A stretch of DNA of 64,000 bases, taken from assembly GCF_016026235.1 (NCBI RefSeq), contig NZ_CP065613.1; one strand, 5' to 3'. Numbering within the stretch: position 1 is the first letter of the stretch; each line of letters begins with the position of its first letter. Positions 15,001-24,000 of this stretch are shown one piece after another. The stretch is from Escherichia coli. GTDB taxonomy: Bacteria; Pseudomonadota; Gammaproteobacteria; Enterobacterales; Enterobacteriaceae. A program made the position numbers.

Positions 15001-18000
15001 TTGAAAACTATGTTCAATAATAAGAGCGCAAGCTTGTCCAATAGACTCATGGCGGCTGACCGGGAGCAGGAAAAGGTTATTTCAGATGCAAATGAATATC
15101 ATGAGTTTGTACTATCGCTGGTTGAAAGCATGCTTACGAACCCGGTAGTACGCCGTAGGTTTGATGATCAAGTCTACAGAATGTCATTTGATGAACCAGA
15201 CACGGTTAGCGAAACTATAAGTGAGCTTGTTTTCCTGGCTGATGTTAACTGGCAGCTAGGGCTTGGGCTTCTGAATACGAATAAAAATGAAGCGATAAAG
15301 TGCCTACTCTTAGCTATTGAATACCTTGATTACTGTCGTGGTCTTGAAGATCAAGAATTATGGCAACAGCAACAGACCACAAAATTAGATGTTCCGGCGC
15401 AGAGGGGTAGAAGTAAAGCTGCTCGCTTTGATCCCATTAAAGCCAAAATTATCAGGCTTTTGCAGGAAGCTTGCCCCTCAGACGGATGGGATACTAAATC
15501 AGAAGCTTTGAAGAGCATAGAGAATGGGATTAATGAACTGAAATGGCCATCTGCACGTGATCAGAACAATCTGCCCAAAACCGGAGCTGAAATATTTGCA
15601 ATGAAGATACGCCAGGTTGAGGTCTGGTCAAGTCAGGATCAGAAAATTAAAGCTGCATTTGATAGTGTCGTAAAGCCTAAAAAATAGATGTACTTGAGGT
15701 CTAATATGCTGGCAGTTTAAGCCTTAAAAGCCAAACTGCCATCTCACAACGCGCATGTTACCTGCGGCTCATTCCAATTGATCGATATCCATCGTCATAA
15801 CTCTTGGTGTGGTCTTTAGCCATATACTCCATGCGCTTCAGTAATTCTTTAACCTGTTGCATATAATTAGGGAGTTTTCTGTTTAAATAAAAACAACCGT
15901 TCTCAGTCATATTCGCCAGACCTGTATATTGCTCTGTATCCAAGCCTAACGCACTACACCATGCCTGCTGGATTAATGCGTATAAACTGTCATCGGAGTT
16001 ATAGTTCCCGGCACCATGGTAGAAGTCTTTATTCAGTAGCAGTAATACATGGTAATGTTTACGGCGGTTAAGTTCACCTACTTCACGTACCCATGCATAC
16101 CGTAATCTATTAGATCGGTTACGTTTCCATCGTAGGTTCTTACGTTGGCAATCGACCAGCAACTTAGCTTTCAGTGATTCAATAAAACGAGTAACCTCTT
16201 TGTTCGAATCACCATACTGATAGTGGCGGGGAAAACGTAAATCAACACGTAGTGCTAACGTACGTGGAAACTCGTCTACTGCATTACGAATAACATCATA
16301 AAATGCTTGCTGGTAGTAAGCATTCAAGGAATTATGCTGCATGTTAATACCTGAATAAATAATTAATATTGAGGTGAGTAAGAATAAATAACCATACAAT
16401 TAACCATCATGATAATGTAGCATGCAGAAGCCATGATAATAGCAGCGCTTCATAGTAGCCCTCCTGAGCCCCAAAGACCTTTATTGCCTGTTGCATGTAC
16501 CATTCACACAGCAACCAGGCATTTTCGACATATTCTTTTTTTATCGCGCATTCACCTTCAGTATAGTAACTCAGCAGCGCGGCCAGACGTGCAACATTAT
16601 TCGGAAGTTTGGATGCAAAATCATTCATGTTTGCATATTCCCTGTCGGGGCCAATACTGCTTTCTATTTCATCGTGAATTTCTTTCCACGCCGCCAAGGC
16701 TGAGGGCTCGAATGATAAACATGTCTGATGCCCAGTCCCGTGTTGAGAAGCACTTTTTTCTATCAGTTCATTCATACGTTGGTAGAAGCGATTAAGATTC
16801 TCCAGCTTACCTGACTGAGGGGAAGATAGACGACTAATAAAACGCTGGCCCTGTGTCGATAATTTCGCATCAATATACAAGATAAAACAGCGTGCAAACA
16901 AACCACTCCCGCGTGCATGTTCGCCCTTGCGTTTTAAAAAATCGTAAAATATTGCTTTTTGTACCATGACTAACAACGTAATACGTCCATTCTTAATCGT
17001 AAAACTTGGCCCTGTTTTCCGATTAACATGAAAACTTTCATCATCCCATATGGAGTTCATAAATCCCAAATCACTCATAGTCCGTCTGCTAAGTATATTA
17101 GCCCCCTCATCAGTTATTAGTCCTGTTTGTGGCGAGTGGGTATACATTTCAAACTGCAGGGCTTCAGGGGTGACATTATTATAAATATACCTTTTGGCTT
17201 TCGGTTGTACTGGCTTTTCAGCAGATAACTGTTCTAACTGCCGTGAAAGTTTATCTGTACATAGTCCTTTCATAGTGTCTTTATCAATGCATTTCAGAAG
17301 TGCATTTTCTTTCTTGCTCCATATTTTAGACTGGACCTCATGTTCTTTCTTCTGCTTTTCATACTGGAGTAATACACGCAGATCATGCTCATGAAAAGGT
17401 TTTAACAGCAGTTTTTCCACCGCTGTTTTTCTCTCGCCAGAATCTGCTATCACGAATGAATACAATGACACCGGAGACTTCATGGTGTCTGTTATTTTTA
17501 CATTAATCAGGCTCTGACACGCCAGTGATAATCCACTCAGCAATGTTAATGCAATCATTTCCCCCGGGGCTCGTGTGCATTCCTCAATATCAAAAATAGT
17601 TTCAAGCAATGACGAGGGGAAAGCGTTAAATGGAAACTCCTGCATGACAATACCTCCAGAAAATGTTGTTTTGATAATTGAAAACTAATCTGGAATGCGA
17701 TCGCAAGTCAATATGAAAAACTGATATTTAGTCTAGTCAGACAGCGTTGGACTAAATTAGTCAAGTGGCAGCTTCTGGTATTTTCATTCGCCTGTGCTTT
17801 CTTTATAAAAACACAGACGAGTAATGTCAGTACGGAGATATACTGCCAGGTAATATGATTTAAATAATTCTCAGATATATATAACCTCAGTGAATTTCCA
17901 CCCGTTTTAATCCAACAGGTCATCCCCACCGGATGGCCTTTTTTCATTCAGAGGCCGATATGAAACATCCCTCGGGTTATACCCTTATCCGTCGCCATCT

Positions 18001-21000: not shown

Positions 21001-24000
21001 TCGCACCCGTGCCGTTACCGGTATTAATGGCGACGTGAAGCTCAATCGTGCCCTGTGGGTAATGGCAGAGAATATGCTCGAGTTTTTCGGGCGTTAAACA
21101 ACGATACAAGCATAAGGAGATAGTTTCATGGATACACAAAACCTTCAGTTCGCTGAGCAGACAGCAATTACTGCCTCTGTGGTACCTGACGAGTTACGCA
21201 TCGGCTTCTGGCCACAGCACTTTGGCTCCATCCCGCAATGGATAACCCTTGAGCCCAGAATTTTTGCCTGGATGGACCGTCTGTGTACCGATTATCACGG
21301 TGGTATCTGGCACTTTTCGACGCTCAGCAACGGCGGCGCTTTTATGGCCCCTGAGTCAGAGCAGGATGAGAAGTGGAAATTGTTCAACAGTATGAATGGC
21401 AACGGCGCGGAACTTACTGGTGAAGCTGCAGGGATAGTCGCCTGTCTGATGGTATACAGCCATCATGCCTGCCGTATCGAATGTGACGCGATGACAGAGC
21501 ACTATTATCGCTTACGAGACTTCGCGCTAAACCATCCAGAGTGCAGTGCCATTATGTATCTAATCGACTGAGGGATACCTGACATGAATACCGTATTATG
21601 CCCGGAGTCTTCACAGCGCGAACTATTTCCGCTGACGGTTATGGCACAACATGGTTACCTGCTCCCTGCGACTTCCGGATTGACACCCTATGCCCAACGG
21701 ACCATTCGCCGGGCTATCAATCTGCTGGATAAATATCTGCGCCAGCCCGGCATATCCTTTACATCAAGTATTGCTGCCCGTGACTGGCTTCGGTTACAGC
21801 TGGCAGGACAAGAACGGGAAGTGTTTATGGTGCTCTATCTCGATAATCAGCACCGTTTACTGGAGAGCGAAACGCTGTTTGCCGGTTCGGTTTACCATGT
21901 CCAGGTCCATCCCCGTGAAGTGGTAAAGTCTGCACTTCGCTTCAATGCTGCCGCTGTCGTATTGGCGCACAACCATCCATCCGGCGATCCGGAGCCCAGC
22001 AAAGTCGATCGGCAGATGACTGACAAACTGAAGGAGGTGCTGGGACTGGTTGATGTGAAAACGCTCGATCACCTGGTTGTCGGTCAGGATGGCATTGTGT
22101 CGTTTGCAGAACGAGGCTGGATATGAAAATCATCAGTAAGCGCCAGGCCATGGCTCTGTACCGGCAACATCCGGGCTCCCGACTGTTTCGCTTCTGTACC
22201 GGCAAATATAAATGGACTGGCAGTATCTGCCATTATGCTGGCTGGGAAGTTCAGGACATACGCAACGTTCTGGCCGTCTTTGCTGAGCGCCGTCAGGATC
22301 GTAATGGTCCCTATGTCATTCTTCGAAGTGTCACTCTTAATTAATCCTTCCCTTTAATCAGGAACAATAATGAACAATCACTCAGTATTCGGTACCAAAC
22401 CGGAGAATCTTACCTGCCAGGAGTGGGGACTAAAGCGCACGATCACCCCCTGTTTTGGCGCTCGTCTGGTGCAGGAAGGTAACCGGGTGCATTTTCTCGC
22501 TGACAGGGCCGGATTCAACGGTGCTTTCATCGACGATAACGCGCTACGCCTGGATCTGGCCTTTCCGTTGATACTCAAGCAACTGGAGCTGATGCTCACC
22601 AGCGGAGAACTCTCTCCCCGGCATGAGCACTGCGTCACGCTATATCACAATGGACTGACTTGCGAAGCCGATACACTCGGCTCCTGTGGCTATGTCTACA
22701 TCGCTATTTATCCCGACCAGCCTGAACCCCATTAACTCTACGCTTATCTCTTAAACTCATAGAGCAAACATCATGCAAACCTTATCATCACACCCGACAA
22801 GGGCGACTCAGCCCTGTCTGTCACCCGTTGAAACCTGGCAACGGCTGCTGACTCATCTGTTATCGCAGCACTATGGCCTCACGCTGAATGACACACCGTT
22901 CAGTAATGAAACCACCATACGTGAAGATATAGATGCCGGAGTATCGCTCAGCGATGCGGTGAACTTTCTGGTCGAAAAATACGAACTGGTTCGAATCGAC
23001 CGAAAGGGATTTTCGTGGCAAGAACAAACCCCGTATATTTCCGTAGTGGATATTCTGCGAGCAAGGCGCTCTACCGGCTTGCTAAAAACTAATGTGAAAT
23101 AAACGCTTAAATACAGAGCAGACTTAAGGAAAGCAAAATGCTAATCTCACAGACGAAGAGACTCCTGCTGTAACCTCCCCTCCCTGCAAAATACCTGACA
23201 TTTTCTTTTAGGACCAACAATGGGACCAAAATGAAAATTGAACTGAAGGTTATCAGCCATTAAACAACAAGTTACAAACCCAATTCAGACTCCGCCAGCC
23301 AATCATGATTGGACGGTGTAAGGACAACACCAACAAAAACAGGAAGTTAGCAGTCTCAGCAGGACACCGACCAGACGGTGAGGAGACAAAAAAGATACGC
23401 AAAGGAGCCGCGGCTCCTGGCGACATGAAAGCCCACAGATGTGGGCTTTTTCGTTGATGGTCAGAACGACCAGTTCACACCAGCCACCGCGTTCCACGGG
23501 GATTCCACATCGGCACCGTTGCTATACCCCACCCCGAGATGCCCGCTTAACGTACTGCTGAATGAGGCTTTAATACCTGCCTGGTATATTCCACGTCTGC
23601 CCGACAAATCATTGACGAAATTACCGTCATTATTCACCTTCACCCGGTTATCATCGACAAATTCTTTGCGCACAGCCGCCTTCAGCCACGGCTCAACTTC
23701 CATACCGTTTCCCAGACGCATGTTGTAACTCAGCGTTGCGCCCAGTTCACGATATATACTGCGGGTATCGACTGATTTCGATTTCATGCCATTGGATAAA
23801 TGATATTCGGGGTTATCAGCGGTGAACCCCGTTAACGATGCATACGGCGTCAGGTTCCAGTTACCATCGGTAAATCGCATCCCGGTTTCAATGTGCCCCC
23901 CCAGCCCGTTGCTGTGATAACTGCCGTTGGCGGCTCCACCGCTGCTCATTTTACCGGCTACGTTACTTTCAAAACGGTTCAGCTTCACGATACCGTCCAG

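Follow-up and report, generated by a model that had tools for sequence, protein, structure and literature searches.

Genes and features at the locus

The window analysed here is a stretch of 64,000 nt from the chromosome of Escherichia coli (contig NZ_CP065613.1). Seven genes, all on the + strand, lie between positions 17960 and 23102, and the product of each has a full-length Pfam match (E about 1e-14 to 3e-55). The first gene, at 17960–18847, encodes a 295-aa island GTPase of the YfjP/YeeP/YkfA type (Pfam MMR_HSR1, 55 bits, E 1.1e-14) with the motifs G1 GKTGVGKS, G3 DLPG and G4 NQVD. There follow a 273-aa DUF932 protein, the counterpart of YfjQ/YafZ (20276–21097; profile positions 1–227 of 227, E 1e-48), a 147-aa ArdB/KlcA-type antirestriction protein, the counterpart of YfjX (LfgA)/YafX (21128–21571; Pfam Antirestrict 2–92 of 92, E 1.5e-35), a 180-aa RadC-like JAB/MPN protein corresponding to YfjY (LfgB)/YeeS/YkfG (21584–22126; Pfam RadC 2–121 of 121, E 5.9e-43) and a 73-aa DUF987 protein corresponding to YpjJ/YeeT/YkfH (22123–22344; 1–65 of 65, E 1e-34). 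The last two genes encode a 121-aa type IV antitoxin of the YeeU/CbeA family (22370–22735; Pfam CbeA_antitoxin 1–101 of 101, E 6e-53) and a 109-aa CbtA-family toxin (22773–23102; Pfam CbtA_toxin 1–108 of 112, E 3e-55). An earlier note on this DNA had placed the seven genes in this order between these limits, and both the Pfam matches and the RefSeq CDS limits in near-identical genomes, which are likewise 17960 and 23102, agree with it. Its description of the genes as all intact is also borne out: the seven reading frames are free of frameshifts and internal stops.

The antirestriction protein scores 121.7 bits against PF03230 (cut-off 25) and is predicted to have antirestriction activity. The RadC-like protein reaches 146 bits against the RadC profile and scores above the cut-off of NCBIfam TIGR00608, and its JAMM motif (HxH-x7-S-xx-D) is intact at residues 129–142 (HNHPSGDPEPSKVD); protease activity has been reported solely for LfgB of K-12 (PMC10846083). 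All ten proteins that were looked up had an exact public match. The exact module proteins occur on between 27 and more than 750 public contigs (554 for the GTPase), and public records give the same names to the ones whose family is known. Gene content, order, intactness, family membership and location at the island end are all shown by this analysis.

The module has three parts: the YfjP-like GTPase, four envelope-type ORFs with a terminator, and a tightly packed six-gene unit from DUF932 to the CbtA toxin. The junctions of the last part measure +30, +12, −4, +25 and +37 nt, the start of DUF987 overlapping the RadC stop by 4 nt (ATGA), and Shine–Dalgarno-like sequences are present at most of them; the ribosome-binding sequence at the toxin start is weak. 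Thus, the short gaps and 4-nt overlaps of the earlier note hold from DUF932 onward (−4 to +37 nt) but not between the GTPase and DUF932 genes, which are 1,428 nt apart.

This interval contains four small + strand ORFs that were absent from the earlier note. Two are hydrophobic and overlap by 4 nt. RefSeq records of relatives list the first (52 aa, 19060–19218) as a hypothetical protein, its exact sequence occurs on at least 1000 contigs, and its position is kept in Klebsiella and Pantoea; the second (38 aa, 19215–19331) was called at the same position in seven of nine related loci. The remaining two have signal-peptide-like N-termini. One is a 154-aa YfjT-family protein (19344–19808), which had no match in the Pfam and NCBIfam copies searched but is similar to K-12 YfjT (BLASTP E 2e-6), and whose same-position homologues carry PF27224 YfjT. 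The other, of 113 aa (19843–20184), is conserved across Enterobacterales, and Pfam and NCBIfam profile searches found no family match for it.

A strong hairpin resembling an intrinsic terminator (20218–20247, + strand; 13-bp stem with eight G–C pairs, T-rich tail) marks the boundary between the small ORFs and DUF932. The six-gene unit is probably transcribed as a whole, although the transcription unit is uncertain because a search upstream of DUF932 found no sigma-70 consensus promoter and the hairpin ends 29 nt before this gene.

Between the GTPase gene and the small ORFs, GATC occurs at 18906, 18919 and 18928, within a cluster (18906–18931) that includes the 9-nt unit CGATCGAGC. It is the sole cluster of three sites within 35 nt in the window, a count that is not significant by itself, as ∼1.3 such clusters are expected. 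The copy number of the unit varies between strains, being one in the window and in two relatives (H1 and H2), two in H3 and three in H9. The position of the cluster after the GTPase gene is also the place of the agn43 switch in CP4-44.

Island context and related islands

We consider it very probable (about 90%) that 17960–23312 represents the conserved right arm of an island of the CP4-57 family, the kind with a P4-like integrase, integrated into the 3′ end of ssrA on the E. coli chromosome. The window begins inside intA, which is cut by the window edge; ssrA lies outside, and directly precedes intA in relatives that are 99.7–99.8% identical. To the right of the island is ypjA (23461–28176), and the RefSeq annotation of 99.6–99.9% identical copies has the same genes between ssrA–intA and ypjA. 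The order of the island backbone, yfjI-like (DUF3987), yfjJ-like, GTPase, DUF932, antirestriction, RadC, DUF987 and toxin–antitoxin pair, is that of K-12 except for the position of the variable slot. The toxin stop is followed by 183 nt of non-coding right arm (23103–23285) and then by a remnant of the ssrA 3′ end at attR, CAGACTCCGCCAGCCAATCATGATTGG (23286–23312), which corresponds to K-12 psaA but is 4 nt shorter. The K-12 annotation has both the end of CP4-57 and psaA at the homologous site, and attR variants exist among the strains compared. Elsewhere, the island carries an Avs-like NACHT protein as cargo (5448–9875), an internal integrase fragment and a yfjI-like gene that is truncated by a 590-bp deletion.

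The module is the positional counterpart of K-12 yfjP…yfjZ-ypjF, and an ordinary, already annotated variant of it. The two occupy the same site, with ssrA/intA on the left and ypjA on the right, and have the same families in the same relative order, at protein identities of 43–77% (GTPase 43% to YfjP, DUF932 protein 76.5% to YfjQ, antirestriction protein 69% to YfjX, toxin 77% to YpjF). The last five genes match yfjX-yfjY-ypjJ-yfjZ-ypjF (lfgABCDE), an operon in K-12 (PMC10846083), and YpjF has the same length as the toxin (109 aa) and shares its Cys15 and Phe65. In a sliding-window comparison with K-12, the genes upstream of the non-coding right arm are 60–80% identical, whereas the last ∼70 nt of the toxin gene, within which identity jumps, and the 183 nt to attR are 88–100% identical. 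The backbone is thus strongly mosaic, and such a switch inside the toxin gene fits recombination between islands. The arrangements differ in the place of the variable genes. Those of K-12 (yfjR to ypjI) separate DUF932 from the antirestriction gene; in the module these two adjoin, and it is the GTPase and DUF932 that are separated, by the variable small ORFs. In addition, the antitoxin N-terminus is 16 aa longer here and CbeA-like, the toxin–antitoxin spacer is 37 nt rather than 20, and the cargo is NACHT/Avs-like, in place of abpAB and rnlAB in K-12.

The gene order is common to the module and to CP4-57, CP4-6 and CP4-44 of K-12, to whose paralogues the RadC-like protein is 54–58% identical. 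In CP4-44, CbtA/CbeA (YeeV/YeeU), the founding type IV system, belongs to the same Pfam families and stands, antitoxin then toxin, after RadC-like and DUF987 genes; the module lacks yeeW after the toxin, and flu and yeeR upstream. CP4-6 has the same order (DUF932, the small envelope genes yafY, ykfB and ykfF, then yafX, ykfG, ykfH, yafW and ykfI) and likewise adjoins its attachment site, but this is thrW rather than ssrA, and its small genes follow DUF932 whereas those of the module precede it. An 88%-identical module in E. coli ChlosBP-23-1 (H10) is collinear from DUF932 to CbtA, with equal gene lengths, but differs in the genes between GTPase and DUF932 (there WYL, YfjS/YafY, IrmA-family and DUF905) and has no ypjA beside the island. 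Module proteins at least 90% identical occur in Citrobacter, Klebsiella, Enterobacter and Serratia, and exact or at least 90% identical forms are widespread. The region adds a further set of alleles to a backbone that is present three times in E. coli K-12 and already annotated in hundreds of genomes, and has little importance beyond correct annotation.

The toxin–antitoxin pair

By sequence, the last two genes belong to the CbtA/CbeA (YeeV/YeeU) type IV toxin–antitoxin family, as the earlier note had named them. Both genes are on one strand, with the antitoxin gene directly 5′ of the toxin gene, and the full-length profile matches are far above cut-off (antitoxin 178 bits against PF06154, cut-off 27; toxin 185.5 bits against PF06755, cut-off 25). 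The antitoxin has relatives of solved structure in YeeU (2inw, 2h28), which it resembles, and YfjZ (2jn7, 2ea9), at E 1e-44 to 1e-49; a search for a solved structure in the CbtA toxin family found none. The earlier note had also pointed to the K-12 paralogues: the antitoxin is 64% identical to each of YfjZ, CbeA and YafW, and the toxin is closest to YpjF, with 69% identity to YkfI and 58% to CbtA, whose 15-residue C-terminal tail it lacks.

Phe65, common to CbtA and the module toxin, is retained in the context DAVNF65LVEKY; CbtA, YpjF and YkfI each lose FtsZ binding with the substitution F65S (PMC5624674). Position 15 is Arg in CbtA but Cys here, as in YpjF and YkfI, and Arg15 is needed for MreB binding, a requirement stated for CbtA (PMC5624674). 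Compared with 150 family representatives, the toxin departs from the consensus at none of the 19 positions that are at least 90% conserved and at none of the 44 that are at least 75% conserved. Its Asp52 is unusual, this residue being His in 93 of 128 family representatives (73%), and costs 4 bits against the Pfam profile. The exact allele is present on 753 contigs and is identical in all five close copies compared.

That FtsZ and MreB are the targets of the CbtA family, as the earlier note had it, is established in the literature (PMC5624674, PMC5371832). YpjF, YkfI and CbtA cause growth arrest and lemon-shaped cells, and are neutralized by YfjZ, YafW and CbeA, respectively (PMC5371832, PMC5624674). 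By analogy, toxicity and neutralization are likely for the allele described here. Homology with YpjF, YkfI and CbtA suggests that the 109-aa toxin would bind both FtsZ, at its H6/H7 loop and via a toxin surface to which Phe65 belongs, and MreB, at its flat face; division and elongation would then be blocked, giving lemon-shaped cells. CbeA acts on FtsZ and MreB bundling and not by binding the toxin, according to the summary of Masuda et al. (2012) in PMC5624674, and the module antitoxin may similarly counteract the toxin by stabilizing FtsZ and MreB filament bundles.

Function and maintenance of the module

The module may stabilize the island or help its establishment after transfer. One version of this idea, which we hold only tentatively and regard as possible rather than probable, takes the genes from DUF932 to CbtA as one mobile-element cassette rather than a stand-alone pair. 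The antirestriction protein, and perhaps the DUF932 and RadC proteins, would protect and process incoming DNA after transfer, and the pair near attR would penalize island loss or delay division during establishment. The three K-12 islands have this gene set in the same order, as do loci of Klebsiella, Enterobacter and Pantoea, the spacing is tight, with the RadC/DUF987 overlap, and the pair is always at the attachment-site end (PMC5371832). RadC, antirestriction and CbtA domains also recur in polyvalent proteins of mobile elements, and a possible delay of division by CbtA during replication of the element has been suggested by the authors who describe them (PMC5512222). However, the set is not obligatory, as two Pantoea loci (L016 and L017) have no called antirestriction or DUF987 gene, and the island has been lost in a close relative without obvious consequence.

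The proposal of the earlier note that the module is still under selection rather than decaying finds only partial support. Comparison with the 88%-identical copy gave a dN/dS of 0.28 for the GTPase and values of 0.08–0.14 for the six-gene unit, and the module genes have thus been under long-term purifying selection. Among five near-identical copies, however, the ORFs differ by six nonsynonymous changes and one synonymous change. Two Arg-to-Trp changes are private to the window: R161W in the DUF932 protein, where 14 of 14 relatives compared have Arg and reversion gains 3.1 bits, and R41W in the DUF987 protein, where Arg is found in 18 of 18; the DUF987 protein also carries G49N. E. coli FDAARGOS_943 matches the window at 100.0% identity along 24.9 kb of core flank but has lost window positions 15677–23256, and with them the entire module, to IS elements. 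The module is therefore dispensable, and its complete loss from a genome with the same core flank shows that intact reading frames say little about selection at present. They show long-term constraint on the gene family, not current need for this copy.

These recent changes would suit a module that is an intact-looking relic in neutral decay, acquired with an island whose mobility functions are eroding, and its genes, including the Asp52 toxin, no longer selected for host or island. The mostly-His position of Asp52, the truncated yfjI-like gene, the integrase fragment and the short attR core point the same way. We nevertheless consider this rather unlikely. None of the seven genes has a stop or frameshift, the toxin is unchanged in the five close copies and widespread as an exact allele, its strongly conserved positions are all retained, and long-term dN/dS is well below 1. 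Even under purifying selection, nonsynonymous changes are often in excess among variants of very recent origin, and the differences here number only seven. The toxin allele with Asp52, the two changes from Arg to Trp and the GATC repeat of variable copy number are of modest value as concrete starting points for work on the CbtA/CbeA family.

It is improbable, in our estimate, that the RadC-like JAB protein, DUF987, CbeA and CbtA form one four-part system, with the protease and DUF987 controlling antitoxin or toxin, instead of a simple two-gene type IV system, and that, separately, the GATC cluster, with a number of Dam sites that varies with the 9-nt repeat, turns the small envelope ORFs on and off epigenetically. 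Very unlikely, too, is a role of the pair as anti-phage cargo acting by abortive infection with the upstream NACHT/Avs-like genes: the Avs-like protein is on the island, and the equivalent place holds the anti-phage genes abpA and abpB in K-12 and a Qat system in another relative, but PADLOC models match neither the DUF932 nor the RadC protein, no phage-defence phenotype for the CbtA/CbeA family was found in the literature examined, and the pair is part of the conserved backbone, at the island's far end and outside the variable cargo slot.

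Gene content and layout of the module

The earlier note had described a run of seven intact accessory genes, and an ORF listing together with Pfam scans confirmed all seven on the + strand, with nearly the full profile length matched for each. They encode a P-loop GTPase (17960-18847; MMR_HSR1, E = 1e-14), a DUF932 protein (20276-21097; E = 1e-48), an ArdB/KlcA-type antirestriction protein (21128-21571; E = 1.5e-35), a RadC-like JAB protein (21584-22126; E = 6e-43), a DUF987 protein (22123-22344; E = 1e-34), a YeeU/CbeA-family antitoxin (22370-22735; E = 6e-53) and a CbtA-family toxin (22773-23102; E = 3e-55). 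The G1, G3 and G4 motifs were found in the GTPase, and the JAMM motif of the RadC-like protein is intact. None of the module genes has a duplicate elsewhere in the window. Rfam searches of the module, at the gathering threshold and at E values up to 1, gave no real RNA gene; the sole match was sub-threshold and lay on a terminator-like hairpin. The short gaps or 4-nt overlaps that had been described hold from DUF932 to the toxin, where the junctions are, in order, +30, +12, -4, +25 and +37 nt, but not between the GTPase and DUF932 genes, which are 1,428 nt apart.

This interval contains 212 nt of non-coding DNA, four small ORFs that the earlier note had left unmentioned (19060-20184; 52, 38, 154 and 113 aa) and the terminator-like hairpin, with a 13-bp stem (20218-20247). 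The 52- and 38-aa peptides are hydrophobic and their ORFs overlap by 4 nt, and the 154-aa product, which belongs to the YfjT family, has a signal-peptide-like N-terminus, as does the 113-aa product. None of the small ORFs matched a family in the Pfam and NCBIfam copies searched; the YfjT assignment comes only from the precomputed family hits of homologues and from a weak match in BLASTP. A relationship of the 154-aa product to the IrmA family was rejected, since it is dissimilar to the IrmA-family protein of H10, the 88%-identical copy of the module in E. coli ChlosBP-23-1. Blocks of these small ORFs occupy the equivalent position in Klebsiella aerogenes, Pantoea ananatis, Enterobacter and other Enterobacterales islands, and in public records they carry the label 'hypothetical protein'.

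The non-coding DNA 3' of the GTPase gene has three GATC (Dam) sites in a 26-nt span (18906-18931). The cluster sits within a 9-nt unit, CGATCGAGC, of which the window carries a single copy, like H1 and H2, whereas H3 carries two and H9 three (H1, H2, H3 and H9 being near-identical copies of the module in other genomes), with one more GATC per added unit. Where the window has this cluster, after the GTPase gene, CP4-44 has at the equivalent place, after yeeP, the Dam/OxyR switch of agn43. The cluster was rejected as a significant signal, as a sequence of this length is expected to have ∼1.3 clusters of three GATC within 35 nt. It is perfectly conserved in the Klebsiella and Pantoea loci; this conservation is uninformative about constraint, however, because the cluster is inside a 97-100% identical, recently shared mosaic block that also spans coding sequence.

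The toxin-antitoxin pair

By homology, the toxin would block both division and elongation by binding FtsZ at its H6/H7 loop and MreB at its flat face (PMC5624674). In CbtA, YpjF and YkfI the F65S substitution abolishes FtsZ binding, and YpjF and YkfI have Cys at position 15 (Heller et al., PMC5624674). The window toxin carries both Phe65 and Cys15. The toxin was compared with 150 representatives of its family, whose members among 1.8 billion proteins fall into 204 clusters when grouped at 50% identity. It departs from the consensus at none of the 19 positions with conservation of 90% or more, nor at any of the 44 with 75% or more.

Inactivation of the toxin by its Asp52 was considered. Position 52 is His in 93 of 128 representatives (73%) and Asp in two, and reversion in silico (D52H) raises the Pfam score by 4 bits. 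Tyr, Gln, Leu and other residues also occur there, and since the position is tolerant and every more conserved position is kept, inactivation is unsupported. The allele is nevertheless common, its exact sequence having been found on 753 contigs. A search for solved structures gave none for the toxin family; the antitoxin is clearly related to the solved YeeU and YfjZ structures. Judging from homology, we put the probability that this toxin allele is toxic and neutralisable at roughly three in four. Among the K-12 paralogues, YpjF and YkfI are neutralised by YfjZ and YafW (PMC5371832), and CbeA, according to Masuda et al. (2012; cited in PMC5624674), acts by bundling FtsZ and MreB filaments and not through toxin binding.

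The K-12 genes yfjX-yfjY-ypjJ-yfjZ-ypjF have been treated as a single operon, lfgABCDE; LfgB, its RadC-like product, is reportedly a protease with the antitoxin MqsA as a substrate for degradation (PMC10846083). As DUF932 abuts the antirestriction gene in the window, the corresponding transcription unit may comprise six genes, from DUF932 to the toxin. We infer such a unit rather than assign it, because the terminator-like hairpin lies 29 nt upstream of DUF932 and no sigma-70 consensus promoter was found between the terminator and the DUF932 start codon.

Relation to the K-12 islands and mosaicism

A comparison with the K-12 paralogues, as the earlier note had suggested, gave identities of 43-77% for the module proteins. 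The toxin is 77% identical to YpjF, 69% to YkfI and 58% to CbtA, and the antitoxin is 64-65% identical to each of YfjZ, CbeA and YafW. Identities to K-12 proteins are 61-73% for DUF987, 54-58% for the RadC-like protein and 65-69% for the antirestriction protein; DUF932 is 76.5% identical to YfjQ and the GTPase 43% to YfjP.

At the nucleotide level, identity to K-12 is 30-80% across the module. It jumps to 95-100% from ∼23030, in the final 70 nt of the toxin gene, and then holds at 88-100% through attR into ypjA. This sharp switch near the toxin's 3' end, from a local 60-80%, has the signature of a recombination junction, which would make the toxin's last residues and the attR-side arm common to CP4-57 and the remaining module that of another lineage. 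The module is mosaic elsewhere too: against one relative from another genome, the small ORFs are 97-100% identical and the adjoining GTPase gene ∼80%.

The module has the same architecture as CP4-57, CP4-6 and CP4-44, and the arrangement near attachment sites that these islands have in common has already been described (Wen et al.). The window differs from the K-12 islands in sequence divergence, in the position of the variable slot, in a longer antitoxin N-terminus, in Asp52 and in a shortened attR. For each of the 10 proteins looked up, an identical public sequence exists, and the seven of known families bear identical names there. The kind of element is already known and this allele set is already annotated.

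The island and its attachment site

Of 5,426 complete E. coli genomes, only 9 have copies of the module with 99.6-99.9% identity over 5.35 kb; ∼1,750 further genomes have more distant versions. In carrier genomes, the island runs from ssrA-intA to just before the autotransporter gene ypjA. The window starts inside intA and continues through ypjA, ileY, glaH-gabP, nrdHIEF and proVWX to gshA, which places it on the E. coli chromosome at the CP4-57 site. In the K-12 annotation, CP4-57 ends ∼190 nt past ypjF, where psaA, a pseudo-copy of ssrA, is located; the homologue in the window, attR (23286-23312), lies 183 nt past the toxin stop codon and has a core 4 nt shorter than in K-12. The core reads GCCAGCCAATC in the window, H1 and H9, GCCAGCCCACCAATC in K-12, H2 and H3, and GCCAGCCACCAATC in H10. 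Excision, or the ssrA end that it restores, may be affected by the shorter version. Arm-type repeats common to the attL and attR flanks were not found, the flanks having no shared 9-mers.

A tyrosine-type integrase fragment (13854-14342), matching Pfam positions 3-77 of 172 and ∼85% identical to part of intA, may be left over from an older or tandem element. Tandem accretion through an internal att site beside the fragment was rejected, as no such site was found with up to three mismatches allowed. The island cargo comprises four large genes on the - strand (2186-13662), one of which (5448-9875) encodes a 1,475-aa NACHT/STAND protein with weak PADLOC hits, Avs1b-like and N-terminal nuclease-like. 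With its 1,260-, 497- and 565-aa partners, it probably forms an Avs-type anti-phage system. Where the window has this set, K-12 has abpAB and rnlAB, and another strain Qat.

Long-term selection and possible recent erosion

The module had been proposed to be under selection rather than decaying. The first part stands for the gene family over the long term, whereas on a recent time scale there are signs of erosion. Relative to the 88%-identical copy, dN/dS is 0.28 for the GTPase and, from DUF932 to the toxin, 0.08, 0.10, 0.14, 0.14, 0.13 and 0.12; relative to K-12, it is 0.11-0.18 where synonymous sites are unsaturated. Purifying selection on the gene family over the long term is evident from these values.

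The ORFs of the window and of the four copies at least 99.6% identical to it differ by seven changes, of which six are nonsynonymous and one is synonymous. Two of these, C-to-T changes (CGG to TGG) at 20756 and 22243, are private to the window and give R161W in DUF932 and R41W in DUF987, each with a loss of ∼3 bits; Arg is present in 14 of 14 and 18 of 18 compared relatives, respectively. Because these changes are private, the exact DUF932 and DUF987 proteins occur on only 27-28 contigs, compared with 500-750 for the others. DUF987 also has Asn49 where every other compared sequence has Gly. Upstream of the module, a 590-bp deletion at 16427/16428 removes the last ∼80 codons of a yfjI-like DUF3987 gene (412 versus 485 aa) and the region upstream of a yfjJ-like gene, as judged against H1 directly and against H2, H3 and H9 through their full-length YfjI annotation. 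The integrase fragment at 13854-14342 is a further sign of erosion in the island.

The most telling evidence of recent erosion is the loss in E. coli FDAARGOS_943 (NZ_CP065615.1), which matches the window with 100.0% identity across 24.9 kb of core flank. This strain is without window 15677-23256, from the yfjJ-like gene to just short of attR, and also without 5863-14036, the lost segments being replaced by a nest of ISSso6, IS2, IS66-family and IS600 elements. The module is thus dispensable in this genetic background, and tolerance of its loss could be explained by cross-neutralisation from paralogous antitoxins (PMC5371832).

Other features in the window

ARAGORN called a tRNA-Met (CAT) at 31088-31163 on the - strand, and RefSeq labels its homologue tRNA-Ile in a genome 99.9% identical across the stretch. 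We take it to be probably K-12 ileY, whose CAT anticodon, when modified, reads AUA. The ORF at 31723-33975 is intact (750 aa), and its annotation in relatives is alpha-amylase C-terminal domain protein; ygaQ, its counterpart in K-12, is a pseudogene. Four REP-type naRNA4 (CssrE) elements are present at 39398-39654 and 53729-53806, three of them in tandem after gabT.
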